A stretch of 64,000 bases of DNA. It comes from a bacterium (GTDB lineage: Bacteria; Patescibacteriota; UBA1384; VFKW01). Below are positions 4,593 to 53,147 of the stretch, piece after piece. Location of the stretch: contig JAUSIS010000013.1 of assembly GCA_030647355.1 (NCBI GenBank), forward strand, positions 48,353 through 112,352, written 5' to 3'. The number at the start of each line of letters is the position of its first letter. Within the stretch, counting starts at the first letter, position 1. Both the position numbers and the translations under genes were made by a program. The notes below the pieces were generated by a model. That model had not been told where the DNA came from. It made no database searches and saw nothing but the letters and a program-made list of their open reading frames with translations.

Positions 4593-5242
4593 ATTACAAA
4601 CTCCCCTCTTTTTTCTATTTGGGGTAAAGAAGCGACTATCTTCTTTAGATCTCCCCGTATAATTGTTTCGTGCATTTTTGTTAATTCCCTACCGATTACC
4701 ACTTGCGCATCCACACCGAAATAATTTAGCAGTTCAATCATTGTTTTCTCAAACCGTTGCGGTGATTCATAAAAAATTATCGGCCTCTTCTCTTTTTGAA
4801 GCGCTTTTAGTAAAGTCTGACGCCCTTTTTTCTTCGGTAAAAAACCCAAAAACAGGAACTCGTCAGAATTAAAACCCAACACAGAAACCAGCGTTGTCAA
4901 AGCCGACGGACCGGGAATCGGAACCACCTTAACACCAGCTTCTATCGCCGCCGCCGCCAACACTCCGCCCGGATCGCTGACCCCTGGTGTACCAGCATCG
5001 CTCACCAGAGCGCAAGATTCACCACTTATTAACCTTCCAATTATCCAATCCACTTTCGAAATTTTGGAATGTTGATGATATGAAACCAATGGCTTGTTAA
5101 CAAAATAGTGTGATAACAAAATTCCTGAATGCCTGGTATCCTCGCAAGCTACAAAATTAACTGATTTTAATATTTCCACCGCCCGATAGGTAATATCCCC
5201 TAAATTACCAATCGGCGTAGCAACTATATAAAGTGTTCCCAT
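4574..5242 (-). CDS. rsmI: 16S rRNA (cytidine1402-2'-O)-methyltransferase
   Basis: N-terminus GTLYIVATPIGNLGDITYRAVEILKSV...EDTR is the tetrapyrrole-methylase-fold RsmI signature. Confidence 0.85.
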   Translation of the reverse strand: MGTLYIVATPIGNLGDITYRAVEILKSVNFVACEDTRHSGILLSHYFVNKPLVSYHQHSKISKVDWIIGRLISGESCALVSDAGTPGVSDPGGVLAAAAIEAGVKVVPIPGPSALTTLVSVLGFNSDEFLFLGFLPKKKGRQTLLKALQKEKRPIIFYESPQRFEKTMIELLNYFGVDAQVVIGRELTKMHETIIRGDLKKIVASLPQIEKRGEFVICLHRM

Positions 5243-5303
5243 CGATTTTAGCTTAACAGATAAGATTTAGCTTGACAATAGTAGGCCTCACGGCAAGTTT
5301 TTC

Positions 5304-7586: not shown

Positions 7587-7720
7587 GTTAGGAGATTATT
7601 CATTGAGCACCTATCACAGGCGAGCAAGCTTGGTGTCGCTTCAGTGACTTGCGAGCCGAGGTAGAGAGGCAATTTTCGCTGGAAAAATTGAACGCGTGTG
7701 CTCAAGAATAATCTCCTAAC
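7587..7720. repeat. TIR-flanked dispersed repeat, copy A (about 134 bp) in the ksgA 5' region
   Basis: 23-bp terminal inverted repeats: gttaggagattattcattgagcac at 7587-7610 and gtgctcaagaataatctcctaac at 7698-7720. The core is about 80% identical over about 95 bp to 44374-44507 (shared caattttcgctggaaaa-ttg-acgcgtg). Confidence 0.55.
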
Positions 7721-7726
7721 ATCCCG

Positions 7727-8856: not shown

Positions 8857-9780
8857 CTACAACACTTTCTCTACACGAACCCTTGGAATAAGCCCTTGCG
8901 AAAGAGGAACTCCTAATGCTTCAAATGCTCCGGTAGATAAATCAATTACCCGATCGCCCCTTAACCCTCCACCCGAAGATGTCACTTCAATACTCTTACC
9001 ATTAGCCAAATTTGTAACCCTTAATCGCGTCCCTTTCGGCACCAAATTACAGGCACCGATCATTCGACTGGTTCTCACGTAATAACTCGCTACACCAGTT
9101 GCAACATTAGCAGTCAAGACTTTAGTTCCTCTTATAACCACTGCATCAACTACTTCTTTAATAATCTTATCACTTATCAAATCTTTAGAAACCAGCTTAC
9201 CATTTTCACGTCTTATCTGGTAAATACATTCCCGTAGACCATTCACCCCTGCCGTCTTTACTTTACTTTTACCTTTATCCAAACTAGGATCATTCTCATA
9301 AATCGTTTTGAAAGAAATTTTTGTATTCTCTGTAATTTGACTCTCGGTTACACGAATAATTTTCACTACTAAACTATTGGAAATATTAGTAGCTAAAGAA
9401 GGATTAACCAAATCTTTATCCCCAACCTCGATTGATTTCTCTTGAAATAAACCACCTACCGTGCCCGCCCAAGTCCGATAATTCACTTGTTCATTTCCAT
9501 CATAAACAATAACCGGAGTAGCTCTATGAATACTGATAATACTCCCCATCCCTAGTTCAGGATCGGGAAATAGCTTGACCTTATCTTCCGGATAAACCGT
9601 GACTTGCAAAGCATCGAGCATATCCCCTATTTTCCTGTATCTATCACTGCCCATATATGTTTCTTGGGGATGATTACTATCGCTCGCTGCTACAGCACCC
9701 AAAACAAAGCCCTTACCCGCAACTAAATCAGGCTGCTTTCCCCTATTAACAAAAAATAGAACGGCAAAACTGGCAATCAA
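8857..9780 (-). CDS. YabE-like protein (DUF348 + G5 + RlpA-like double-psi beta-barrel)
   Basis: N-terminal TM segment. The C-terminus ASYYVRTSRMIGACNLVPKGTRLRVTNLANGKSIEVTSSGGG...VIDLS is an RlpA/3D-type DPBB. It is a paralogous arrangement to the preceding gene and sits next to ksgA as yabE does in Bacillus. Confidence 0.65.
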   Translation of the reverse strand: MIASFAVLFFVNRGKQPDLVAGKGFVLGAVAASDSNHPQETYMGSDRYRKIGDMLDALQVTVYPEDKVKLFPDPELGMGSIISIHRATPVIVYDGNEQVNYRTWAGTVGGLFQEKSIEVGDKDLVNPSLATNISNSLVVKIIRVTESQITENTKISFKTIYENDPSLDKGKSKVKTAGVNGLRECIYQIRRENGKLVSKDLISDKIIKEVVDAVVIRGTKVLTANVATGVASYYVRTSRMIGACNLVPKGTRLRVTNLANGKSIEVTSSGGGLRGDRVIDLSTGAFEALGVPLSQGLIPRVRVEKVL

Positions 9781-9915: not shown

Positions 9916-11796
9916 TTAATAATCTAGATTCTCTATCAAATGATTTGGAATATCATCAATAAATCGAGAGCGAAAATTTGTTTGCACCCCGCCATAGACA
10001 ATTCTAGTCAAAGCATAAGTCAGATATAACCGCTTCATCGCCCGGGTAATTCCTACATAACACAGGCGCCTCTCCTCCTCCAACTCATGTTCATCCATTA
10101 AGCTGCGAGAATGCGGAAAAATCCCCTCTTCCATTCCTGCTAAAAATACAGTCGGAAATTCTAAACCCTTTGCTGAATGCATAGTCATCAGAGTCACAGC
10201 ATCCGCACTTTCGTCATAACTGTCAATATCGGAAATGAGCGCCGCTTGCTCTAAAAATTCATCCAAATTATCCAATAAGCTAGCTACATTCATCAGTTCC
10301 TCAATATTTTCCCATCTCCCCTGCCCCTCAATTGTTCCGTCTAAAATAAAATTCTTATATCCTGTCATATCTAGAACTAATCTAATCAATTCGCCAACCT
10401 TCACGCCCTTTGATTTTTCCCGTAACCCTTCAATCATCTTCCAAAATATTTGGATCTTTGGATTTTCACTTTGAGATTTGTCCGCCAGCTGGCGGATTGA
10501 ATTTTGAGCTTTTGGTCCTATTCCTCTGGACGGAACATTAATTATCCGGCGCAGACTTACTTCATCAAGCGGATTGACTATCACCCTTAAGTAAGCCAAG
10601 ATATCCTTTACTTCTTTTCGATCATAAAAGCGAAGCGCCCCGATAACTTTATATGGCACTCGCAGTTTCAACAAACTCTCCTCAAATATGCGTGATTGGG
10701 CATTTGTTCTATATAAAATAGCAAAATCGTTCAAGTTCATACCAGCTTGGCGCAACGCCAACATCTCTGAAATAATAAATTCGCTCTCTTCCTCTCCCGA
10801 TCGCCCCTGAAATACAACAATTGGCACTCCGATAACGTTATCTGTCCATAAGTCTTTAACTGTCCTGTTTCTATTTTTCTCAATGATCATCTGTGCTGCT
10901 TCCAGAATGTTCTTGGTCGATCGGTAATTTTGCTCCAACTTAAATACTTTTGCATCGGGATAATCTTTTTCAAAATTCAAAATATTCTTAAAATTCGCTC
11001 CCCTCCATCCATAGATTGCCTGATAATCATCTCCAACAACACAAATATTATAATGTTTATCGGCTAAAAGTTTTGTTAATTTATACTGCGCCTCATTCGT
11101 ATCCTGGTACTCATCTATCAAGATATATTTGAAAAGGGATTGATATTTTTCCAACACCTCCGGATTATTCTCCAGTAGCAAAACCGTCTGCATGATAAGA
11201 TCATCGAAATCCATTGCCTGCGAAACTCTCAAAGCGCTTTGATACTCTTTGTACACTCGCGTCACTATCTCTTGAAAATGACCATTGGCATACTTCTCAT
11301 ACTCCCCGGGGCCTAAAAGCTCATTTTTCGCTCCTGAAATAAACGAAATAACCGCTTGTGGCGAATATTGCTTTATATCAATCCCTAATTTCTTCATTAC
11401 ATTCTTGGTCAAAACCAATGAGTCTTGGCTATCATATATAGAAAAATTCGAACTGAATCCAATATATTTTGCCTCCCTCCTTAAAATCTTGACGCATATC
11501 GAATGAAAAGTACCCATCCAAGGAAGCTTGGAAATCCCAGATTGCCCCGTACCTGGACGGGAAATCGCAAGCAGCCGATTAACTCGATCAATTAATTCAC
11601 GCGCTGCTTTATTGGTAAAAGTTATAGCTAAAATATGATATGGCGAGACTTTTTTCATTTGTATTAAATATGCCATCCGATGAGCCAAACATCGGGTTTT
11701 ACCACTACCGGCCCCTGCCAATATTAAAATCGGGCCATCCCCGGCAATGACTGCCTCTCGCTGTTTTGTATTCAACTCGTTAAGTAAATCCGACAT
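9916..11796 (-). CDS. pcrA: ATP-dependent DNA helicase PcrA/UvrD (compact form)
   Basis: Walker A motif GAGSGKTR and UvrD helicase motifs I-VI (DEYQDTN, QNYRST, TMHSAKGLEF). It contains the in-frame palindromic-element insertion at 10470-10511. Confidence 0.85.
   Translation of the reverse strand: MSDLLNELNTKQREAVIAGDGPILILAGAGSGKTRCLAHRMAYLIQMKKVSPYHILAITFTNKAARELIDRVNRLLAISRPGTGQSGISKLPWMGTFHSICVKILRREAKYIGFSSNFSIYDSQDSLVLTKNVMKKLGIDIKQYSPQAVISFISGAKNELLGPGEYEKYANGHFQEIVTRVYKEYQSALRVSQAMDFDDLIMQTVLLLENNPEVLEKYQSLFKYILIDEYQDTNEAQYKLTKLLADKHYNICVVGDDYQAIYGWRGANFKNILNFEKDYPDAKVFKLEQNYRSTKNILEAAQMIIEKNRNRTVKDLWTDNVIGVPIVVFQGRSGEEESEFIISEMLALRQAGMNLNDFAILYRTNAQSRIFEESLLKLRVPYKVIGALRFYDRKEVKDILAYLRVIVNPLDEVSLRRIINVPSRGIGPKAQNSIRQLADKSQSENPKIQIFWKMIEGLREKSKGVKVGELIRLVLDMTGYKNFILDGTIEGQGRWENIEELMNVASLLDNLDEFLEQAALISDIDSYDESADAVTLMTMHSAKGLEFPTVFLAGMEEGIFPHSRSLMDEHELEEERRLCYVGITRAMKRLYLTYALTRIVYGGVQTNFRSRFIDDIPNHLIENLDY
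10470..10511. repeat. palindromic element inserted in-frame in pcrA (encodes AQNSIRQLADKSQ)
   Basis: Perfect palindrome tccgccagctggcgga at 10481-10496. The surrounding stretch of about 42 bp is near-identical to 43717-43760 inside nifS. Confidence 0.6.
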
Positions 11797-12624: not shown

Positions 12625-12636
12625 CCATCGGGATCT

Positions 12637-12654
12637 ATCCGCCAGCTAGCGGAT
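12637..12654. repeat. palindrome family member (atccgccagctagcggat)
   Basis: 18-bp perfect palindrome with a gctagc centre, a variant of the ccgccagctggcgg family. It lies inside the 5' leader of the 12708 ORF. Confidence 0.5.
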
Positions 12655-12707
12655 CGGATCTCGACGAGATGAATAACCTTAATAATCAATCCCGCGGAGG
12701 AAAACGA

Positions 12708-13181
12708 ATGTCAACAGCCAGAACCAATACGAATCAGACAATTTTCCAAAAAGACGGGCAAACAGTCGCCGTTCTAGGAGAATTGGATCCAGAAACAACT
12801 CTGATCTACTGCCTTCCGTCTGCCGAATCTGTCCCCGCTCAAGTAGAAGATAACCCGAAGCTAGTTCTCGCCCCTGTCTTCCGCCCCATTCCTCACATCG
12901 AGCCGAAAGCATATGCTCGCCAAACCGAGGGCATAGTTCTTCTCCCTCTCAAAGTCGGCAATTACCAACTCAAAACCGTCGCCATCGAGCTCAGCCCGTC
13001 CTTAACCTCGCTTCCACCCCACCTCATCTTCGATGGCTACGACCACCCCAGGGGTAAAGACGGTCAAGTTTTCCGCCTGACCAGTCAATCAATCACTATT
13101 TTCAGCCTGAGAATCCACTGCGCCGTGGGTGAACGCCCAGTCTACCGACTTGAAGAAAAAAAGGAGGATACATCATGCTAA
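12708..13181 (+). CDS. hypothetical protein (GC-rich island ORF 2)
   Basis: ATG at 12708 preceded by ggagg at 6 nt. The upstream in-frame ATG at 12669 lacks an RBS. About 55% GC codon usage, unlike neighbouring genes. No recognisable domain. Confidence 0.45.
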   Translation: MSTARTNTNQTIFQKDGQTVAVLGELDPETTLIYCLPSAESVPAQVEDNPKLVLAPVFRPIPHIEPKAYARQTEGIVLLPLKVGNYQLKTVAIELSPSLTSLPPHLIFDGYDHPRGKDGQVFRLTSQSITIFSLRIHCAVGERPVYRLEEKKEDTSC

Positions 13182-13790: not shown

Positions 13791-13828
13791 TTATCCACAG
13801 GCAGTCATTACAGAAATAGTTATCCACA
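13791..13828. promoter_or_regulatory. two consensus DnaA boxes (TTATCCACA) 21 bp apart
   Basis: ttatccaca at 13791-13799 and 13820-13828. They lie in an AT-rich 350-bp spacer just 3' of dnaB. The palindrome tccgccagctggcgga follows at 13835-13850. Confidence 0.4.
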
Positions 13829-13853
13829 GTCAATCCGCCAGCTGGCGGACCGA

Positions 13854-15233
13854 CTATCCGCTTGCTGAAATTTTCCTGTGATCCAAATTGCCAAACTTCG
13901 TCTGTTCAGGAATAAAATAGAGCTTAATATCACCGATCGGACCATTACGATGTTTACGTACTAAAATATCTGCAATATTCTTATTTTCCGTTTCTTTATT
14001 GTAATAATCCTCGCGATAAATGAACATAACCACATCCGCATCCTGCTCGATACTTCCGCTCTCCCGCAAATCGGATAACTGAGGAATCTTTCTATCCCTC
14101 TGCTCCACTGCCCTTGATAACTGCGACAGAGCAACTACCGGAATATTCAATTCTCTGGCTAGTGCCTTCAGTGATCGGGAAATCTCCGATACTTCCTGGA
14201 CACGATTAGCATCATTCCCGTGAGAGCTTCGCCCCTCCATTAGTTGCAAATAATCAATAATTACCAAACCCAACCCGTGCTCAACCTGTAGCCGACGCGC
14301 CTTAGCCCGTATCTCCATAACCGAAAGCATCGGCGAATCATCAATAAATATTGGCGCTTCTGCCAGCTCTCCCATCGCTTCTCCGATTTTTCTAAAATCA
14401 TCCTCTGCTAGCTCCCCTTTTCTAAGCCTCCAGGAATCAACCCCCGCCTGCATACAAAGCAACCGATCCACTATCTGATCTCTTGACTGCTCCAATGAAA
14501 ACAAACCCACTGGCACCTTATGCTTAACCGCCGCATATTCAGCAATATTCAAAACAAAGCTGGTTTTACCCATACTGGGACGAGCAGCAATTATGACTAA
14601 ATCTGATTTTTGTAATCCGGATATCAATCCATCTAACTCCTTAAACCCTGTCGGTACACCCCTTAAAGTACCTTTATTTTTATGCAACTCGTCTATTCTA
14701 TCAAATGACTCCTCGAGTACCGATTTTATAGGAACAAAATTATCACTGGTAAATTTCTGGCTGATTGAAAATATAGTGCTTTCCGCTTTATCCAAAACCT
14801 CGGCAATATCGGCAGTTTCATTAAATCCCAGCTCAATTATTGTCGAAGACGCATGTATTAGTCGTCGAAGTGTTGCTTTATGACGAACGATCTCCGCATA
14901 CTTGGCAACATGCGCCGAAGAAGGTACTCCATTAACCAGCGAGGACAGGTACGCCGCTCCTCCTACTTCTTTCAGTTTTTTTCTTGTCTCCAGTTCATTC
15001 GTCAGAGTTACCAAATCAATTGGCGATCTTTTTTCAAATAAAACCAACATAATTTCATAAATCAACTTATGGTCATCACGGTAAAAATTCTCGCTATTCA
15101 AAATGTCCACTACTTTCAATATAGCGTCTTTGTCCAGTAAGATTGCCCCAAGAACTGACTGTTCTGCCTCAATATTTTGGGGGGGGATTTTAGAAGGCAG
15201 CTCGCTTTTCGCCACTAATCCTCCAAGCGTCAA
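13854..15233 (-). CDS. dnaB: replicative DNA helicase
   Basis: N-terminal PQNIEAEQSVLGAILLD. Walker A ARPSMGKTSF. Motifs typical of DnaB (SLEQSRDQI, GLVIIDYLQLM). Confidence 0.9.
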   Translation of the reverse strand: MTLGGLVAKSELPSKIPPQNIEAEQSVLGAILLDKDAILKVVDILNSENFYRDDHKLIYEIMLVLFEKRSPIDLVTLTNELETRKKLKEVGGAAYLSSLVNGVPSSAHVAKYAEIVRHKATLRRLIHASSTIIELGFNETADIAEVLDKAESTIFSISQKFTSDNFVPIKSVLEESFDRIDELHKNKGTLRGVPTGFKELDGLISGLQKSDLVIIAARPSMGKTSFVLNIAEYAAVKHKVPVGLFSLEQSRDQIVDRLLCMQAGVDSWRLRKGELAEDDFRKIGEAMGELAEAPIFIDDSPMLSVMEIRAKARRLQVEHGLGLVIIDYLQLMEGRSSHGNDANRVQEVSEISRSLKALARELNIPVVALSQLSRAVEQRDRKIPQLSDLRESGSIEQDADVVMFIYREDYYNKETENKNIADILVRKHRNGPIGDIKLYFIPEQTKFGNLDHRKISASG

Positions 15234-21285: not shown

Positions 21286-23162
21286 TGACTGCCTTAAAAA
21301 TGATCAGACAGCAAAATCGCCAAAAAGGACAAGCCCTGCTGATGGCTATCACCATTCTCGGCATTATGTTAGTCGTCGCTACTGCCGTTCTTTCCTATAG
21401 CGAACAGAGTATCCGCGAAACCCGCCATAGTTACAGAACCACAATGGCTCTCTCTCTTGCCGAAGCCGGGATAGACTATGGTATAAGACAACTAAACCTG
21501 GACTCTGATTTTACCGGAACATCTACACCAATCCAGCTAGGCGCAGGCGAATTCGAGGTCAGCATCTCTGGTAGCGGAATTACCCGCGAGCTCACCTCGT
21601 CTGCTTACATACCGCAAAAAACGAGTTACCAAGTAAGAAAACGACTTCGCGCTGATATAAATGTCAATAATATTAATATCCACTTTCCATATGGAGTACA
21701 AGCCGGAGAAGGCGGAGTATATATGGCTCCCAATAGTAAAATAATCGGCGATATTTATTCAAACGGTTCGGTCGAGGGTACTACGGGCAACAGCATCACC
21801 GGAACAGCCATCGTTGCCAACGATAGCAATTTACTCACCCCCATAGAGTGGACAACCTATAATAATGACTTCACTTTTGGTCAAACTTCACCAGTAATTG
21901 ACATTGCTCAAAGCTTTACCTCGATAAGCACTGAAACAATAAACAAAATCTCGCTATATCTTAAGAAAGTGGGTAACCCATCAGATATAGCAATCCGTGT
22001 TTTCCCCGATCTTGGCAATCGCCCACTAAGATCTACTTTGGTAGCCAGCGGTACTTTGTCATCTGCTGGGATTACAACAACCTACAGCTGGGCAGAGACA
22101 TCTATTAATAATAATCTCCCCATGGTAGCTGGCTTAAAATACTGGATAGTTATTGATAGCGCATCGGATTCAAATAACTATTGGCAGATCGGCACGGATA
22201 GTAGCGATGGATATATTGGCAACTCTGGCATGACCAGCCCAAACTGGGACAAAAACCCAACGCCAACATGGAATGATCTAAATCAAGATTTTAATTTCCG
22301 AGTTTTTCTTGGCAACTCCGGAACCTACATTAAAAATGTTGATGTCACAGATGATGCTTATGCTCACCTTTTTAGCGATGGTGATGTTGGTAGAGACTTC
22401 TTCGGCTACCAATTCACCGGCGGATCATCGAATCACGATGTCGGCCGCGATGCCCACGCCAAAGAGCTCTCATTGTGTCATGTCAAAGGTGACGCTTATG
22501 CTGATAATAACCTATGCTGGGTAGACGGCAACCTCTATCCCGGCTCCGGAGAACCGGATCGTTCTCCCGCTAACTTCCCGATTACCGCTGCCAACATCGA
22601 AGATTTCAAAACAAATGCATCAGTAGCTACATATAGCGGCAATTATACCCCGCCGACTTCTCCGGCAAACCTCGGACCGATTCGTATCAATGGAGATCTT
22701 AATCTTATTAACAGCCAATACATTAATATCACAGGTACCGTTTACGTCACAGGAAAAATAAATTTTGCCAATAATAATGTGATCGCCCTAGATCCGGGTT
22801 ATGGCACATCGTCGGGAATTATTATCACTGACCAGCCAGCCACCATTGCCAACAATGTCACATTCCAGGGAAGCGGCCAGCCAAATACCTATGTCCTTGT
22901 AATCTCAACCAGTAATTCGACCGATCCGGCTAATCCAGCTTTGGATATAAGACAGAACGTCAATGCAGCCATTCTTTTTGCCCCAACTGGACTTGTATAT
23001 CTGGCAAATAATGTTGAGATTAAAGAGACAACCGGATATAAATTATATCTTAACAACAATGCCAGGGTAACCTACGAATTGGGTCTGGAAAATGTCCTAT
23101 TTTCCACCGGTCCAGCCGGCGGCTGGCGGATGAAACCCGGCACTTGGCGAGAAATAACATGA
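21285..23162 (+). CDS. large PilX-N-like pilus-associated protein (possible tip/adhesin)
   Basis: N-terminal QKGQALLMAITILGIMLVVATAVL resembles the PilX_N pseudopilin-like anchor. 625 aa, Thr/Asn/Gly-rich beta-type extracellular body. Confidence 0.5.
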   Translation: MTALKMIRQQNRQKGQALLMAITILGIMLVVATAVLSYSEQSIRETRHSYRTTMALSLAEAGIDYGIRQLNLDSDFTGTSTPIQLGAGEFEVSISGSGITRELTSSAYIPQKTSYQVRKRLRADINVNNINIHFPYGVQAGEGGVYMAPNSKIIGDIYSNGSVEGTTGNSITGTAIVANDSNLLTPIEWTTYNNDFTFGQTSPVIDIAQSFTSISTETINKISLYLKKVGNPSDIAIRVFPDLGNRPLRSTLVASGTLSSAGITTTYSWAETSINNNLPMVAGLKYWIVIDSASDSNNYWQIGTDSSDGYIGNSGMTSPNWDKNPTPTWNDLNQDFNFRVFLGNSGTYIKNVDVTDDAYAHLFSDGDVGRDFFGYQFTGGSSNHDVGRDAHAKELSLCHVKGDAYADNNLCWVDGNLYPGSGEPDRSPANFPITAANIEDFKTNASVATYSGNYTPPTSPANLGPIRINGDLNLINSQYINITGTVYVTGKINFANNNVIALDPGYGTSSGIIITDQPATIANNVTFQGSGQPNTYVLVISTSNSTDPANPALDIRQNVNAAILFAPTGLVYLANNVEIKETTGYKLYLNNNARVTYELGLENVLFSTGPAGGWRMKPGTWREIT

Positions 23163-25674: not shown

Positions 25675-25957
25675 CTATTTAACTATATCAAGCAAACGAA
25701 AAAACCACCCGGAACCTGTTCAGATACTATTCTAGGAGCGAATCGGGACAGTTTAAGCCGAAAACTGTTATAGCAATACTGTCTTGCCTGTTCCACCACA
25801 GGCGTGGGTCATTGCGAGGAGCGTAAGCGACGTGGCAATCTATTTTTCCCATAAAAGATTGCTTCGCGCCATCAACTCGCAATGACTAAAAATAGAAGCC
25901 ATCGAAAACTCCTAAAATCGTCATTCCGGGCTTGATCCGGAATTTATTATATCTATA

Positions 25958-26866: not shown

Positions 26867-29203
26867 TTATTTTACTTGCTTAAGATAACTTTCCATCGGA
26901 TTCTTCACATCAATCTTATCAGCATCACTTGTCGTCGGCTTGGTTAGAACCGCCCCTTCCCCCTCAAAAGGATCGGCTGGTTTTTGGGAAACTATCGGCA
27001 AAGTGAATTTGAAAATTGCACCCTTACCTCCGCCAGCTGGTGGACTCTCAATCCATATTTTACCACTATGCAGCTCCACCAGTTTCTTGCTGATATAAAG
27101 CCCCAAGCCCGACCCCTGAAATTCGTTTTTTTCGCGATTGAGCTGGCTGAATTTTTTAAATAGTTTATCGGCATCCTCTTGCTTTATCCCCACACCCGTA
27201 TCCGATACTGTAAATTCGAGCGACCTGCCGTCAACCTTCGCCTCAATAGTCACTCCGCCTTTTTCCGTGAACTTGATCGCATTGCCTGCCAAATTAACTA
27301 AAACTTCGCGAATCCTATTTATGTCTATCCAAGTTTGCGGCAATTTATGCTCCGGCTTCTCAAATTTCAAATAAATCTTCTTCGCATTTGATTTTACGCT
27401 CAATTCATCAATAACGCTCTGAACCAATTCCTCCGGACCTATTTCTCCGTACATCAAATGAATTCTCCCCTGCTCGATTCTGGAGACATTTAAAAGATCG
27501 AGTATCAAAACCGCCAACCGTTTGCTGGATGCATAAACTCTATCCAAATATTCTTTGGCCGTAGCGTCAACTTTGCCCATTCCTTCATCCAAAATCATGC
27601 TTAAATAGCCCTGTATTGCCGCCAAAGGCGTATTCATCTCATGACTGGCAACCGAGATAAATTCGTCTTTCATCTGATCCAAATCCTTCAAGTAATCGTT
27701 CGCCTTCTTTAAATTTTCATACGCTATCGCTCTCTGGACAGCCAAGCTTACTTCGTTCGAAATGGCTGCCATCATACTGATCGCTTCGGTGGCAATATCC
27801 TCGATTGGATGTTTCAATCCATAAATGGCCACTCCGAATCTCTCATCCTTAGCTGATAACGGGATGGCAATCAGTCCTTTTATATCACTTTTTGTTTGAA
27901 GTTCCCTAGCTAGAGTCTTATCAAGCGGCGGCGACACAAAATCCGATAGGTTATTCCCCTTCTGTTCCTTTTGACTATGGTACGCCATCATAAGTAAGTT
28001 TTCACGGTTTTTCAGAGGAATGGCAGTCGAACGCACCACTTCCTTCCACTTATCCAAAAGCCCATCAGATAAATTAGTCTCGGACAGGGCATACCCCTTC
28101 ATCTTCTCACTCTCCTGGTCAACCAACGCCACTACCACTCCCATACATTCATCGATCTCCTTAGGAATGGTATTGATAATTTGCTGAATCATCGGCTTCA
28201 TCTCATTATTATCGAGGACTATATCAGAAAATTTCTGCAAAGTTGATAGATTTTTATTTCGCTCGTCAACTTCCTTGAGCGCCCTCTCCCTCTCCTTTGC
28301 CAGCGTCTCCATCTCCTCCCGCTGCTTGATTTCTTTTCTAACACTTCTTATCAACGAAAAACCACCAAATACCGCCAATAACCAGACAATACTCTTAAGC
28401 ATTCCCTCACCAACCGAATTAGATAAAAATACTTCGATCAAAAGACCAAGTGAAAGTAAGATTACTATAGTCTCGGTTGTAACTACTTTAATATCAAACA
28501 AACCTGTTTTTATTATACCGTAAGCTATAAATCCAACGAAAAATATTATTGAATAATTACCAATACGATAGAGCGACTGGTTATCTAGAATAATTGGAAT
28601 AGTGGTATTAAATAAGACCTCAAGAAGAACGAATATCCCAAAACCCAATAATAAGTATTTTAATTGAAGCTTTTTTATACCATAAGTATTAAAATAATTT
28701 CTCACGAAGATTATTAAAGAGGTTAGTAGTAAAATTAGTGAAAAAGGTAGAAATATTTGAAAATAAGCATTACTGGTGATTACATCAAAACCCCATTGAG
28801 TGTGCTTAATCCCCGTTGCAAAAAAAGAAGTAAAAACCGTAACTATAAATAAAATCGTGGCACAAATCAAAATGAATAAATTAAGAAGATTCACATAACG
28901 CGAAAGCTTAATATGAAATGGATAAACTAAAGAAAAGAAGTATAAAGTTATACACATCCCAACAACCGAACCAAAAGTAATTCTACTTAACAATAGCGTT
29001 ACCCACTCGTTTGTATTTACAAAAAACTCAGAAACATAGGCAGAAGAAACTATCAAACATGAAAATAAAGCAAATCCAATAAAATATTTATTAGCAATAT
29101 CTTTGGGATCTTTTAAATATACTACTAATCCTAAAAAGATACATGTGATACAAATAATTAATACACCAATTGATTCCATGTTCAGTAGTAATCCGGAAAT
29201 CAT
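26867..29203 (-). CDS. sensor histidine kinase with a multi-TM N-terminal sensor region
   Basis: About 8 N-terminal TM helices, then a coiled coil and a GAF/PAS-like region. HisKA H-box SHEMNTPLAAIQGY. HATPase_c N, G1 (DTGVGI) and G2 (GSGLGL) boxes. Confidence 0.8.
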   Translation of the reverse strand: MISGLLLNMESIGVLIICITCIFLGLVVYLKDPKDIANKYFIGFALFSCLIVSSAYVSEFFVNTNEWVTLLLSRITFGSVVGMCITLYFFSLVYPFHIKLSRYVNLLNLFILICATILFIVTVFTSFFATGIKHTQWGFDVITSNAYFQIFLPFSLILLLTSLIIFVRNYFNTYGIKKLQLKYLLLGFGIFVLLEVLFNTTIPIILDNQSLYRIGNYSIIFFVGFIAYGIIKTGLFDIKVVTTETIVILLSLGLLIEVFLSNSVGEGMLKSIVWLLAVFGGFSLIRSVRKEIKQREEMETLAKERERALKEVDERNKNLSTLQKFSDIVLDNNEMKPMIQQIINTIPKEIDECMGVVVALVDQESEKMKGYALSETNLSDGLLDKWKEVVRSTAIPLKNRENLLMMAYHSQKEQKGNNLSDFVSPPLDKTLARELQTKSDIKGLIAIPLSAKDERFGVAIYGLKHPIEDIATEAISMMAAISNEVSLAVQRAIAYENLKKANDYLKDLDQMKDEFISVASHEMNTPLAAIQGYLSMILDEGMGKVDATAKEYLDRVYASSKRLAVLILDLLNVSRIEQGRIHLMYGEIGPEELVQSVIDELSVKSNAKKIYLKFEKPEHKLPQTWIDINRIREVLVNLAGNAIKFTEKGGVTIEAKVDGRSLEFTVSDTGVGIKQEDADKLFKKFSQLNREKNEFQGSGLGLYISKKLVELHSGKIWIESPPAGGGKGAIFKFTLPIVSQKPADPFEGEGAVLTKPTTSDADKIDVKNPMESYLKQVK

Positions 29204-31861: not shown

Positions 31862-32236
31862 ATGAAATAATCCCCGTTATTAATATAAATATATCATTAA
31901 TTATGATCGGATACAATATAATTAAATCATAACTATATCTGAAACCATAAATGTCCTCCTTTATTATTCTAATACAGTATAGCCGCCTACGAAAAACTTC
32001 GGTACTTATCAAAAAAATCAAGATCGCCCTGCCCTACTCTCATTTAACCACAATCGCCAAAAAACCCATATAGTCACATATACAAGGAGAGGTAATCCAA
32101 CTTATCCTAATTCTTCACCACCTGAATAGAGTTCAATATCTTTTTCCCAACCCAACCTATCACGCTCTTCTCACACTCTTCCAACCACAACCACTTCGAC
32201 ACATTCCCCCAACCCCAACCCGATATTACCGACCCA

Positions 32237-32271
32237 CCGTAACCGCTTCTGCGCTATAGCGCATAACTAGT
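32237..32271. repeat. 35-bp direct repeat, copy 1 (3' of the PaaX-like gene)
   Basis: ccgtaaccgcttctgcgctatagcgcataactagt, about 86% identical to 32934-32969. Contains the palindrome gcgctatagcgc. Confidence 0.6.
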
Positions 32272-32325
32272 TACGCTTACAGGAGGTACAATATTTAAAA
32301 AAAATGAAGCTGACTCTGAAATATA

Positions 32326-32913
32326 CTATTCACCTTGGTTTAAATTAAAATATTTTACTAATTTATCCGCGCCCGGCAAAAAATCTGTCTTCAAATACGC
32401 GACAAATGAAGAAATTCCACAAGATTGAGTTAAAATCGCAATCTCTTCTTTACATTCGTAAGGAATAACCCATAAACTATCCTGAACCTGAAAAAACCCA
32501 AAATTAATCAATTTCCGCCTGAAGTAATCTCTTTCCTTCTTTTTACTTTCTGGAATATCATAGCTCACCAGATGCCAAATCCCATCCCAATATTCGAATT
32601 TACTAATCACAAGCTCATCAATTTTAAATCTTTCCAATAATTCCAATCCCTTCTCTGTCAATTTGACTTTCTCGCCAGCTAAATAGATAATCCCCTTTTC
32701 TTCCAGCAATTTCAAATTTTTCTTATATCTATATTTTTGCTGACGATTTTGCAACATCAAAACCTGAGCCACATTCGGTGCCACAAATGCCGAGGCCAAG
32801 ATCAACCCTGTCTCCACCATCTTCAAAATTTCCTTTTGCTTTTTCGATATTCTCATAGTTAAATTATAACAAAATACAACTATATTCGTACTACCCAAAT
32901 TTATGCTACCCAA
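32326..32913 (-). CDS. putative transcriptional regulator, wHTH + Cas2/VapD-like C-terminal fold (PaaX-like)
   Basis: Central KKNLKLLEEKGIIYLAGEKVKLTEKGLELLE looks like a winged helix. The C-terminus WHLVSYDIPESKKKERDYFRRKLINFGFFQVQDSLWVIPY resembles the Cas2/PaaX_C beta-alpha-beta pattern. The real start may be the internal M at about 32856. Confidence 0.4.
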   Translation of the reverse strand: MGSINLGSTNIVVFCYNLTMRISKKQKEILKMVETGLILASAFVAPNVAQVLMLQNRQQKYRYKKNLKLLEEKGIIYLAGEKVKLTEKGLELLERFKIDELVISKFEYWDGIWHLVSYDIPESKKKERDYFRRKLINFGFFQVQDSLWVIPYECKEEIAILTQSCGISSFVAYLKTDFLPGADKLVKYFNLNQGE

Positions 32914-32933
32914 CTAAATACCTGATCAACCTA

Positions 32934-32969
32934 TCGTAACCACCTCTGCGCTATAGCGTATAACTAGTG
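32934..32969. repeat. 35-bp direct repeat, copy 2 (5' of the PaaX-like gene)
   Basis: tcgtaaccacctctgcgctatagcgtataactagtg. Confidence 0.6.
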
Positions 32970-33188
32970 ACATATTAATGTGGCAAAAAGCGACATTTCT
33001 ATTTTACATTGACAGAACCGCCATGGAGCCACCAACGAATCTATGACAGTCCGTTGTGGTCCCAAATGGTAAGATAAGACTAGCTGATCAATAGCACGAT
33101 CTAATTCAGGCGATGTGCACGCTCGCTATTGAGGAACTTGCAGACAAGAATGTGCTGCCAGAACCAATAAAGAGAGCTATTATAGCAA

Positions 33189-42603: not shown

Positions 42604-43047
42604 TTAAATATTTTCCTGTTCATTATCAATTCTTCTAGATTTATAGTTCACAATCGCCGCTCGAAGGGCTTGATCGCCCAAAACCGAACAGTGTATTTTG
42701 CGAGCGGGCAGCCCGTCTAGCTTCGACACTATATCCTGGGGACGGATCTTCCCGGCCTCCTCAAGGGTCATTCCGGTTACCATCTCCGACATAACAGAAG
42801 TAGAGGCAATAGCTGAAGCGCACCCAAAGGTCTGCCATTTGCACTCGGTTATCCTATCTTTGGCTACTTTGATAAAAACTCTCATAAGATCGCCGCAAGC
42901 CGGGCTTCCAACCTCTCCCACACCATCAAACTGGTGAATATCAATTTTACCCGAAATAAAATTGCGGGGATTTAAAAAGTGATCCTTAACCTTATCCGAA
43001 TAGACCCAACCCGCACCATCCTGAGAAATGTCAGGTAATTTACTCAT
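42604..43047 (-). CDS. iscU: Fe-S cluster assembly scaffold (NifU/IscU/SufU-type)
   Basis: Conserved Cys triad context GSPACGDLMRVF ... CASAIAS ... HCSVLGDQA. Confidence 0.8.
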   Translation of the reverse strand: MSKLPDISQDGAGWVYSDKVKDHFLNPRNFISGKIDIHQFDGVGEVGSPACGDLMRVFIKVAKDRITECKWQTFGCASAIASTSVMSEMVTGMTLEEAGKIRPQDIVSKLDGLPARKIHCSVLGDQALRAAIVNYKSRRIDNEQENI

Positions 43048-44372
43048 ATTTTCTCCTTATCGCTTCTAATTGCCGAGATACTCCTTAGACGTGAAACGAC
43101 AGATGGCAGTACCGCCAAGACATAATCTATATCTTGTTTAGTTGTCCTGCGGCCAAGACTAAACCTTAAACTACCATGCGCTCCCTCATGTGACAAACCA
43201 ATTGCCTTCAAGACATGAGATGGCTCCAAACTATCAGAATTGCACGCCGAACCCGTTGAAACAGCTATCCCTTCCTCGTCAAGCATCAGCACCATCGCCT
43301 CCCCTTCTACACCATAAAAACTAAAATTAGCATTTCCCGGCAATCTATTAACCTTTGAGCCATTTAAACCGGTGTTGCTTATCCGAGTCAATACCCCATC
43401 AATCAGATAATCACGTAATTTTGCTAATCGGGCAGACTCCCCTGTCCTCTCTCTGTCAGCTATCTTGAGCGCTTCCGTAAACCCGACAATCCCTAGAATA
43501 TTCTCTGTTCCACTTCTTAATCCACCTTGCTGACCACCGCCAAAGATAACAGGTTGTATCTTTACCCCATTTCGCACATACAAAATCCCTATACCCGTCG
43601 GGCCATAAATCTTCGTGCCATTCGAGGTTAACAAATCAACATTTAACCTGTTAACATCCAAATCTAAATATCCAGCGGCTTGACAAGCATCGGTATGAAA
43701 ATATATCTTTCCATTATTTTGAGATTTGTCCGCCAGCTGGCGGATTGATTTTTGAGTTTTCAGCCAATTACCAATTTCGGCGATTGGCTGTACTGTTCCT
43801 ATCTCATTATTGGCATACATTATCGAAATTAAGATGGTTTCAGGTCGAATAGCCTGCTTTATATCTTCTAATTTAACCAGCCCATCCTTATCCACCGGTA
43901 GATATGTAACTTCAAACCCCTCTGATTCTAACTGTTTACAGGCGTTAAGCACAGCATGATGCTCAAATTGAGTAGTAATAATATGCCCTTTACATCTAGA
44001 TTCTGAATTCTGGAACATGGAATTAAGTTTGGAATTTTGAACATCAGAATTTTGGATTTGTTTAGAATTTAGAATTTCGGATTTAGAGTTTGCTCTGGCC
44101 ACCCCCAAAATTGCCAGATTATCACTCTCAGTCCCTCCGGAAGTAAAAACTATCTCATCGCTTTGGCAGTGGAGTATCCAGGAAATTTCCGTCCTGCAGT
44201 CACCTATTTTATCCCTTGTCGCCCTTCCTCTTGTATAAATACTAGACGGATTACCGTAACCTCCCTTTAAATAAGGTTCCATCGCCAAAAATACTCTCTT
44301 ATCGAGAGGTGCCAAAGCCGCATGATCTAAATAAACTTCTCTTCTTTCCATCTTTCCCTCATCATTACTCAA
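43044..44372 (-). CDS. nifS: cysteine desulfurase (NifS/IscS) with two in-frame insertions
   Basis: PLP-dependent class V fold. The active-site loop SGSACNS (catalytic Cys) is present. TTG start with an open frame. Contains a low-complexity insertion (43995-44095) and the palindromic element (43717-43760). Confidence 0.85.
   Translation of the reverse strand: MSNDEGKMERREVYLDHAALAPLDKRVFLAMEPYLKGGYGNPSSIYTRGRATRDKIGDCRTEISWILHCQSDEIVFTSGGTESDNLAILGVARANSKSEILNSKQIQNSDVQNSKLNSMFQNSESRCKGHIITTQFEHHAVLNACKQLESEGFEVTYLPVDKDGLVKLEDIKQAIRPETILISIMYANNEIGTVQPIAEIGNWLKTQKSIRQLADKSQNNGKIYFHTDACQAAGYLDLDVNRLNVDLLTSNGTKIYGPTGIGILYVRNGVKIQPVIFGGGQQGGLRSGTENILGIVGFTEALKIADRERTGESARLAKLRDYLIDGVLTRISNTGLNGSKVNRLPGNANFSFYGVEGEAMVLMLDEEGIAVSTGSACNSDSLEPSHVLKAIGLSHEGAHGSLRFSLGRRTTKQDIDYVLAVLPSVVSRLRSISAIRSDKEKI
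43717..43760. repeat. palindromic element inserted in-frame in nifS (encodes TQKSIRQLADKSQ)
   Basis: tccgccagctggcgga at 43729-43744. Near-identical to 10470-10511. Confidence 0.6.
43995..44095. repeat. degenerate GAATTT-type microsatellite-like tract inside nifS
   Basis: Repeats of gaatt(t)tgga / agaattt. It encodes the low-complexity peptide SKSEILNSKQIQNSDVQNSKLNSMFQNSESR inside the NifS fold. Confidence 0.5.
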
Positions 44373-44373
44373 A

Positions 44374-44507
44374 GGTGAACTGTTTTATCGAAAGGTCTTT
44401 CGCAGGTGAGCAAGCATGGTTCCGCCAACTGGCGGATTGCGAACCGAGAATGAGCGACAATTTTCGCTGGAAAATTGTACGCGTGCCTTGAGATAAAATA
44501 TTTCACC
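44374..44507. repeat. TIR-flanked dispersed repeat, copy B, filling the nfu-nifS intergenic space
   Basis: Inverted repeats of about 22 bp: ggtgaactgttttatcgaaagg and ccttgagataaaatatttcacc. Core about 80% identical to copy A (7587-7720). Carries the palindrome variant tccgccaactggcgga at 44421-44436. Confidence 0.55.
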
Positions 44508-52817: not shown

Positions 52818-53040
52818 CTAAATTTATTCTTCGAGTGTCGAACCGTGCGGAACAAAACTTATTCTTCGAGCGATCGGACTGTGCGGAAACTAAATTTATT
52901 CACCGAGCAGTCGAACACTACGGAAACTAAATTTATTCTTCGAGCGATCCGCCAACTGGCGGAAACTAAATTTATTCACCGAGCAGTCGAACACTACGGA
53001 AACTAAATTTATTCTTCGAGCGATCCGCCAACTGGCGGAG
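52818..53040. repeat. degenerate 37-38 bp tandem repeat array (about 6 units) upstream of the giant surface protein gene
   Basis: Units share the core aaactaaatttattc(tt/ac)cgag plus a 22-nt variable part. Two alternating unit types give a 76-bp super-period. Two units carry tccgccaactggcgga (52948-52963 and 53024-53039). Confidence 0.7.
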
Positions 53041-53147
53041 AGTCGAGAAGTTACAATCATCAGTTCTCAACCCTTCGACCATACTCGGGGTAAACAAGCT
53101 CGAACAATAAGAATATTCCGGATTCTTCGGGGCATCGATAGGAAGTC

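Follow-up and report, generated by a model that had tools for sequence, protein, structure and literature searches.

A GC-rich palindrome dispersed in Candidate Phyla Radiation bacteria and other phyla: candidate core of a miniature mobile hairpin element

Rickettsia palindromic elements (RPEs), which are 100-150 bp long (PMC1779305), end in CGTC and are restricted to Rickettsiales (PMC3733652). CGTC-tagged repetitive extragenic palindromes (REPs) have no dedicated transposase, occur in several phyla including Bacteroidetes, and include intragenic copies in replication and repair genes (PMC3733652). Here, we report on a family of palindromes typified by the 16-mer TCCGCCAGCTGGCGGA, present in a 64,000-nucleotide stretch of contig JAUSIS010000013.1 (assembly GCA_030647355.1, positions 48,353 to 112,352; hereafter the window, numbered from its first letter). 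To judge from its gene sequences, the source organism is a Berkelbacteria-like bacterium of the Candidate Phyla Radiation (CPR). The palindrome is probably the core of a miniature, non-autonomous, GC-rich palindromic mobile hairpin element, a reading drawn from the sequence comparisons described below.

As is the case with RPEs (PMC1779305), the palindromes are dispersed hairpin repeats in a reduced genome, with in-frame copies in housekeeping genes, copies in RNA genes and lineage-specific proliferation. The palindrome core, however, measures 16-19 bp in a unit of ~43 bp, is devoid of a CGTC tag, is unrelated in sequence and is hosted by CPR bacteria and other phyla. An original prediction made from the letters of the window alone had likened the family to RPEs; its in-frame housekeeping copies indeed recall them, whereas length, tag and host clade do not. 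With REPs and CGTC-tagged REPs (Di Nocera et al. 2013, PMC3733652), the palindrome shares a GC-rich stem-loop of 20-40 bp, with stems of 6-9 bp and loops of 4-5 nt, and a concentration of intragenic copies in replication and repair genes; it is also found nested in CGTC-type hairpins. It departs from REPs in carrying CAA instead of GTAG or CGTC, in being mostly single and about half genic, in its A-rich heptamer arms and in a core that is identical across phyla. Since the palindrome differs from RPEs in length, tag and clade, and from REPs in tag, dimer habit and extragenic bias, it falls in neither family.

Among known systems, the yeast mitochondrial GC clusters (GC42 and GC18; PMC4478555, PMC2800124) appear to be those which the palindrome most closely resembles in behavior (PMC4478555). 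Both are short GC-rich palindromes in an AT-rich genome, bordered by AT-rich sequence and short direct repeats, with a constrained stem and a free loop, and prone to merger, shuffling and arrangement in tandem arrays; both have an in-frame copy in a protein gene, undergo interspecies transfer and have no known enzyme. The mitochondrial clusters, in contrast, are organellar, eukaryotic and unrelated in sequence, and the phylogenetic spread of the palindrome is much wider. Miniature inverted-repeat transposable elements (MITEs) are likewise non-autonomous, dispersed and sometimes in frame, and the palindrome could be taken for a pair of 8-bp terminal inverted repeats that abut, but it has no fixed-length target-site duplication, no parent insertion sequence was found for it and it is far smaller than bacterial MITEs. 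Though it behaves like them, the element belongs to none of the RPE, REP and mitochondrial GC cluster families.

Copies of the palindrome in the window and in other genomes

Three exact copies of the 16-mer lie in the window, at 10481-10496, 13834-13849 and 43729-43744, together with five one-mismatch copies starting at 12638, 27029, 44421, 52948 and 53024; two three-mismatch matches at 23115 and 51009 are doubtful. These eight copies in 64 kb compare to 0.08 matches expected, at up to three mismatches, from a dinucleotide-preserving shuffle, and ten matches were reached in none of 100 shuffles. Among GC-rich perfect palindromes of at least 12 bp, TCCGCCAGCTGGCGGA is the only one to recur in the window, where its copies occur at a density of about 1 per 8 kb and where a core of 75% GC stands out from a surrounding genome of ~41% GC. 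A dispersed palindromic family that is real and over-represented is thus confirmed in the window, in agreement with the seven or more copies initially proposed. That earlier list had overlooked a third genic copy in a histidine kinase gene (27029-27044), and some of its coordinates were off by 1 (the dnaB copy is at 13834-13849, the copy with a gctagc center at 12638-12653, and the nifS stretch starts at 43718).

The exact 19-mer CAATCCGCCAGCTGGCGGA matched at least 119 8-kb blocks of GTDB species-representative genomes versus about 4 expected, the latter figure being our own estimate for a random 19-mer in 596 Gb. Carriers among the matches listed are mostly CPR classes, comprising Saccharibacteria, Gottesman-, Curtiss-, Davies-, Roizman-, Shapiro-, Moran-, Campbell-, Giovannoni-, Yanofsky-, Azam- and Kuenenbacteria, WWE3, Paceibacteria and others; carriers outside the CPR are Bacteroidota (two cultured isolates), Cloacimonadota (a single-cell genome), Fermentibacteria and Neomarinimicrobiota. 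The 19-mer matched one 597-kb contig at 120, 272, 360 and 512 kb. Viral contigs harbored the 16-mer in 55 stretches, about half of which come from high-GC DNA and resemble coding sequence that matches by chance; in viral contigs with a GC content below 0.52, 19 matches to the 16-mer were found versus 4 and 2 for two composition-matched control palindromes. The family is thus not peculiar to the source genome: its copies are dispersed within genomes and common to many CPR classes and some other phyla. An assembly or adapter artefact was rejected: the copies come from numerous separate projects, isolates and a single-cell genome among them, their loops vary and the reading frames through them stay open. 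In Bacteroidota metagenome-assembled genomes (MAGs; L008, L117, L051, L061 and L021), the palindrome lies within a longer conserved repeat, TTTTCTTTTTGCTTGAACAAAAAGAAACAAAAATT-CAATCCGCCAGCTGGCGGA, three copies of which, one with an extra nested hairpin, are found in one such MAG.

Structure of the unit and the sites it occupies

The core of the element consists of a 6-bp stem, TCCGCC/GGCGGA, with AGCT as the preferred loop and usually CAA before it. While the stem is fixed, the central four bases vary (AACT, ATTT, GGCT, GACT and others): 14 copies with other central tetranucleotides were counted in 0.93 Mb of fetched loci versus 0.06 expected, and the compensatory stem variant TCCGTC/GACGGA occurred three times in the same loci. 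This combination of a fixed stem and free central bases argues against CAGCTG being a functional or restriction-type site, as had been entertained earlier. A position weight matrix of 128 copies gives CAA as flank consensus and neither a GTAG nor a CGTC tag. In the source lineage, the core is part of a ~43-bp unit, AAATCTCAAAT-N-TCAA-core-C-AAATCTCAAA, the arms of which are A-rich, heptamer-like and in register. The flanks are A-rich on one strand and related to each other as direct repeats (matched versus mismatched flanks, p ~1e-6), with phase peaks at 19, 26 and 33 nt that equal CAA plus heptamer steps. A metagenome scan using the 26-mer of the window yielded 23 stretches which, together with the two window copies, represent 22 unique contexts; all 22 have AAATCTCAAAT.TCAATCCGCCAGCTGGCGGACAAATCTCAAA in common and nothing further out. 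Because the arms are common to unrelated insertion sites, they would in this subfamily be part of the ~43-nt unit or a strongly preferred landing sequence rather than site-specific duplications. Target-site duplication was also rejected on account of flank repeats that are variable in length, follow a 7-nt register and are common to unrelated sites.

The two strands of the unit differ in coding capacity and in folding. Neither the palindrome nor the A-rich strand has a stop codon in any of the three frames, whereas the T-rich strand has TGA in two of its three frames, and arm-bearing genic copies therefore retain the A-rich strand as the coding strand (33 of 36 such copies). As a consequence, the terminator-like strand, with its hairpin and U-rich tail, falls antisense to the gene. 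RNA from the T-rich strand is predicted to fold, with the help of G-U pairs, into a long hairpin of -16 to -17 kcal/mol that leads into a U-rich tail, was scored as terminator-like and folds better than flank-shuffled controls (p = 4e-5), whereas the mRNA strand forms only the 6-bp hairpin (-10.8 kcal/mol). Covariation between the flanks was rejected, matched and mismatched flanks folding equally well.

Full 43-nt units are found in two housekeeping genes of the window. The stretches 10470-10512 in pcrA (9916-11796) and 43718-43760 in nifS (43044-44372) are 95% identical over 43 nt and both read on the minus strand, in frame, as SIRQLADKSQ, which bears out the common stretch of about 42 bp with in-frame IRQLADKSQ reported in the original prediction. 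On the coding strand, both consist of an A-rich arm, CAA, the 16-bp palindrome and a second A-rich arm. The minus-strand reading of pcrA is ...QNSIRQLADKSQS..., with the unit encoding AQNSIRQLADKSQ; that of nifS is ...QKSIRQLADKSQN..., with the unit encoding TQKSIRQLADKSQN and the stretch read as TQKSIRQLADKSQ. That both are in-frame inserts, as first proposed, holds for NifS: relative to the solved structure of IscS (PDB 4r5f), the segment KTQKSIRQLADKSQNN is a 15-residue insertion located in a surface loop between a helix and the strand of the HxDA motif, and none of 25 CPR homologues has it. The situation in PcrA is less simple. PcrA from the closest relatives (66-74% identity) reads GIGPKTYEASIGKEPTGK, and more distant orthologues read GIGAKSQNS-DI-KSQNENPK, with the flanks KSQNS...KSQNENPK at the same place; at the DNA level, TCA ATC CGC CAG CTG GCG GAC AAA in the window corresponds to TCA GAT ATC AAA in the orthologue L001, relative to which only IRQLA is extra (+4 aa, 12 nt net). 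Thus, the IRQLA core is absent from the PcrA and NifS homologues compared, in keeping with the lineage-specific insert suggested earlier, but the A-rich flanks are present without it in distant PcrA orthologues and the net gain in pcrA is just 12 nt. The PcrA loop, which forms the start of the region aligned to residues ~426-440 of 1pjr and harbors in the orthologue L303 a 24-nt A-rich tandem duplication at the spot of the palindrome, is evidently, as far as these alignments indicate, a permissive and repeat-prone site. The third genic copy, TCCGCCAGCTGGTGGA (27029-27044, minus strand, one mismatch), lies in frame in a histidine kinase gene (26867-29203; Pfam HisKA and HATPase_c) and reads IWIES-PPAGG-GKGAIF, PPAGG falling within the HATPase_c domain.

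NifS also harbors a second insert of ~30 residues (NSKSEILNSKQIQNSDVQNSKLNSMFQNSESR; ~44010-44110, residues ~91-119) with four TTTAGAA repeats that is absent from solved IscS structures, and unrelated hairpin-coding inserts occur at the same two NifS loops in other CPR proteins (L176 and L177). In one CPR nifS gene, two copies of a hairpin-coding insert differ by compensatory changes.

Outside genes, the dnaB-side copy (13826-13858, minus strand, core 13834-13849, exact) lies 4 nt past the stop codon and forms with its flanks a 14-bp hairpin of -23 kcal/mol as RNA. A one-mismatch copy on the plus strand, with an AGCTAG loop (12627-12665, core 12638-12653), occupies the tip of a longer hairpin of -22.1 kcal/mol directly upstream of the ATG of an orphan ORF (12669-13181) that matched no Pfam family. 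The nfu-nifS spacer contains a structured element of ~120 nt, the internal hairpin of which is formed by the AACT-loop variant at 44421-44436 (minus strand). Two further AACT-loop palindromes, at 52948-52963 and 53024-53039, belong to a tandem array of 37-39-nt units (52818-53050). Inverted TCGAG arms flank the last of them, and the relative L001 has a similar TCGAGCAA-palindrome-AAGTCGAG copy at 9320-9352. Rfam matched a known RNA family at none of the palindrome copies of the window. Two perfect DnaA boxes (TTATCCACA; 13791-13799 and 13820-13828) lie directly downstream of dnaB and adjoin the palindrome copy, and the relative L304 has three DnaA boxes at the syntenic place (~5190-5250). The region beyond dnaB may be oriC-like or DnaA-regulated; a GC skew that is negative throughout the window, with no switch, tempers the oriC-like reading.

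In other genomes, 67 of 138 copies among the loci listed fall in open frames of at least 150 codons, and all three frames are used (PPAGG in 38, SASWR in 18 and IRQLAD in 11). Ten genic copies submitted to Pfam all proved to lie in genuine genes, with domains on either side of the insert or spanning it, encoding a class I tRNA synthetase, RecG, glutamate dehydrogenase, two GT4 glycosyltransferases, a MiaB-like enzyme, a penicillin-binding protein transpeptidase, CTP synthase, RecR and a methyltransferase; a further copy lies in an arginyl-tRNA synthetase (ArgRS) gene. One copy is situated 28 nt into a bacterial RNase P RNA, directly before the GGAGGAAAGTCC motif, which would place it in P3. 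Other copies were found in a 23S-5S spacer, after a 5S gene, between tRNAs and beside a truncated tRNA-Arg copy, and ~10% of all copies cap a longer perfect hairpin built by their own flanks. The truncated tRNA-Arg is a 5' copy of tRNA-Arg(TCT) that runs straight into the palindrome (L004, 1041-1117) ~110 nt upstream of the intact tRNA-Arg gene, an arrangement reminiscent of a scar left by integration or duplication at a tRNA 3' end. All-against-all BLAST of 1,086 ORFs from the 119 loci revealed no recurrent neighbor gene and returned common families alone, such as histidine kinases, glycosyltransferases and pilins.

Comparison of relatives points to turnover of the copies. On L305, the closest relative contig, copies occupy the pilB-dnaX spacer and a place after a G5 gene, but neither pcrA nor the 3' side of dnaB has one; L304 has none in 16 kb, and an ArgRS homologue at 79% identity is devoid of the palindrome insert. 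Presence/absence differences are seen only between relatives at 74-79% protein identity. Copies therefore occupy differing places in related genomes, and individual copies decay. The palindrome also enters into modular combinations. In a Patescibacteria MAG (L030, 3700-3790), a loop variant of the palindrome is repeated in tandem as four units of 22 nt (GTCCGCCGACTGGCGGATTGGC), and one loop of the ArgRS encoded at 10145-11848 of L298 (protein cluster P0241) combines the palindrome and a CCTGCC...GGCAGG module in tandem (SIRQLADKSLPRQQAGQ), a composite found in both L281 and L298. CGTC-type hairpins enclose the palindrome, between cgtcattgcaa and gaagcaatc, in one genome each of Gottesmanbacteria and Bacteroidota and in viral contigs. 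Unrelated hairpin-coding inserts occupy the same loop in other CPR ArgRS proteins. The L298 ArgRS has an N-terminal ASPAGRPA insert as well, and ArgRS homologues display other recurrent peptide modules at the loop of the palindrome (e.g. SIYKILKDPTASP and RKFDFSPVGLAVGSF), which suggests several more families of hairpin elements.

Origin of the copies and competing explanations

Taken together, dispersion, decay, lack of positional conservation, tolerant sites, a free loop, merging and the absence of a linked gene form a pattern that reads as that of small selfish palindromic repeats. The element would spread as selfish DNA and survive only where it does no harm, in in-frame surface loops and linkers, at the tips of RNA helices and in intergenic hairpins. 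The arms that occur without a core at the pcrA site, the frequency of hairpin tips as hosts and the absence of a linked enzyme favor short-patch recombination or template switching as the most probable mode of spread, with low-complexity A-rich arms or existing hairpin loops as likely landing pads; phage DNA or DNA taken up by the cell could carry the element between lineages, and a dedicated trans-acting enzyme may yet take part. An origin from a parent insertion sequence bounded by palindrome ends was rejected, the few isolated half-sites being mostly loop variants, plus one tandem array, with none resembling the end of an insertion sequence.

A number of observations weigh against a mobile element. 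Its movement is read from sequence comparison rather than observed, and no filled/empty pair of near-identical sequences was obtained, the ArgRS homologue search reaching 79% identity at most. The direct-repeat flanks do not constitute a clean target duplication of fixed length, and the arms are found without a core in PcrA orthologues. No transposase, reverse transcriptase or Y1 (HUH) protein was found among the ~50 ORFs of the window or near the 119 loci. A letter-identical 19-mer across phyla, to which Bdellovibrionales and uncultured Gammaproteobacteria would have to be added if their unconfirmed record labels are right, is hard to account for by neutral selfish DNA unless transfer is very frequent or a conserved factor recognizes the sequence, and this letter-perfect core keeps a host function in play.

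The host function in question would be a signal of which the identity is maintained by selection, be it a T-rich-strand terminator directed against antisense or read-through transcription, an RNA stability or processing hairpin, or a protein-binding site. Consistent with a signal, the stem is exactly conserved across phyla, the plus strand at 10480-10497, antisense to pcrA, was scored as terminator-like, RNA from the T-rich strand outperforms both the mRNA strand and flank-shuffled controls in folding, several copies follow stable-RNA genes or precede T runs, and one lies directly past the dnaB stop codon. We nevertheless regard a host signal as unlikely: copies are not retained at orthologous positions in relatives, many have decayed, a role as terminator or operator is implausible for those in RNase P RNA and protein loops, neither pcrA nor nifS is faced by a convergent gene, and matched flanks fold no better than mismatched ones. 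Still more doubtful is a classical REP or REPIN moved by a RAYT (a Y1 transposase of the IS200/IS605 type) whose gene would lie elsewhere in each genome. Although the size and hairpin shape of the palindrome are REP-like, and its presence in pcrA, recG and recR matches the known occurrence of REPs in replication and repair genes (PMC3733652), it has CAA as flank consensus in place of a GTAG or CGTC tag, its copies are mostly single rather than inverted dimers, about half of them are genic, one sequence spans phyla where REP families are usually species-specific, and no Y1 transposase was found in the window or near the loci, a search that did not extend to whole genomes.

We find it quite improbable that the palindrome is a chromosome-level site, that is, either a DNA uptake sequence serving CPR competence and type IV pili or a parS/NBS-like site for chromosome segregation or organization. 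A perfect 16-bp palindrome is parS-like, one copy adjoins DnaA boxes, the window encodes PilB, PilC, PilM, PilN and pilins, and there is a parallel in Neisseria, where uptake sequences in inverted pairs make up terminators and genes for genome maintenance are enriched in them. However, canonical parS is absent from the window, a density of ~1 per 8 kb is about tenfold below that of known uptake sequences (about 1 per kb), the copies on the 597-kb contig are spread along it and unclustered, those in NifS and PcrA are extra sequence and not substitutions, one is located within RNase P RNA, and the family spans phyla and phage contigs. Least credible of all is a one-off gene-conversion patch from an ancestral pcrA to nifS, the other copies being unrelated chance hairpins. 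The pcrA flanks are indeed ancestral in Berkelbacteria-like orthologues and the nifS copy has nearly the same flanks, but the proposal is contradicted by the core in at least 119 genome blocks and by the 26- to 43-nt unit in 20 other unrelated gene contexts of metagenomes, and the eight window copies far exceed chance.

Beyond a miniature mobile hairpin element as such, a bolder reading, which we put forward tentatively, is that the stem-loop is the recognition core of an undescribed kind of minute mobile DNA shared across phyla by CPR bacteria, the Bacteroidota/Cloacimonadota group and phages. Mobilization might then rely on a trans-acting enzyme recognizing TCCGCC/GGCGGA hairpins or, alternatively, on transformation- or phage-borne short-patch gene conversion landing on hairpin loops and on the ubiquitous A-rich heptamer arms. 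The palindrome would in that event be one member of a modular system of hairpin elements shaping the variable loops of CPR housekeeping proteins and RNAs.

Surroundings of the copies and significance

The window PcrA has its next relatives at 72-74% identity, its named matches being Berkelbacteria or Patescibacteria, and Pfam annotation of the ~50 window ORFs returned a typical CPR gene set, which includes dnaB, dnaX and pcrA for replication and repair, type IV pilus genes, an iscR-nfu-nifS-nifU-sodA cluster, tRNA synthetases and large surface proteins. The spacer element that harbors the palindrome at 44421-44436 has a paralogue. Both elements are ~115-135 nt long, one being located upstream of ksgA (7588-7722) and the other in the nfu-nifS spacer (44373-44500), and they have in common the core ...GAGCAAGC.TGGT-hairpin-TTGCGA.CCGAG...CAATTTTCGCTGGAAAA...ACGCGTG. 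In both, a long terminal stem, of different sequence in the two, closes the structure, and the element at 7588-7722 has a different hairpin where the other carries the palindrome. Neither matched Rfam, even at E <= 10, and they are candidates for a new structured RNA or a MITE. The array at 52818-53050 comprises six units between folE and the gene of a 1,383-aa fn3/Ig-like surface protein; the palindrome variant occurs in two of them and degenerate sequence is found at that place in the others. An 86% identical 43-nt direct repeat (32232-32274 and 32929-32971) containing another palindrome, TGCGCTATAGCGCA, flanks an ORF (32326-32913) that is PaaX-like with a Cas2-like middle domain. CGTC-type REP-like hairpin modules resembling repeats reported in several phyla lie at 25806-25886 (GTCATTGCGAGGAGCGTAAGCGACGTGGCAATC ... 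GATTGCTTCGCGCCATCAACTCGCAATGAC) and 25919-25945 (CGTCATTCCGGGCTTGATCCGGAAT), in the spacer before a response-regulator gene. In the literature, the palindrome sequence string matched no paper, and searches combining CPR with palindromic or in-frame elements returned nothing specific.

Very small as the genomes of CPR bacteria are, the housekeeping proteins they encode display many unexplained lineage-specific inserts. The present observations tie at least part of this variation to short hairpin-forming DNA modules that appear to land repeatedly in permissive loops, such as those of NifS, ArgRS and PcrA. A module that is letter-identical across phyla implies either very frequent exchange of DNA between lineages or a conserved recognition machinery. 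The 19-mer provides a sequence handle with which the flow of DNA among CPR bacteria, their neighbors and phages may be traced, and the palindrome can serve to flag spurious 'domains' and low-complexity peptides (IRQLAD, SASWR, PPAGG) in protein annotation, as well as offering a starting point in looking for a mobilizing activity.

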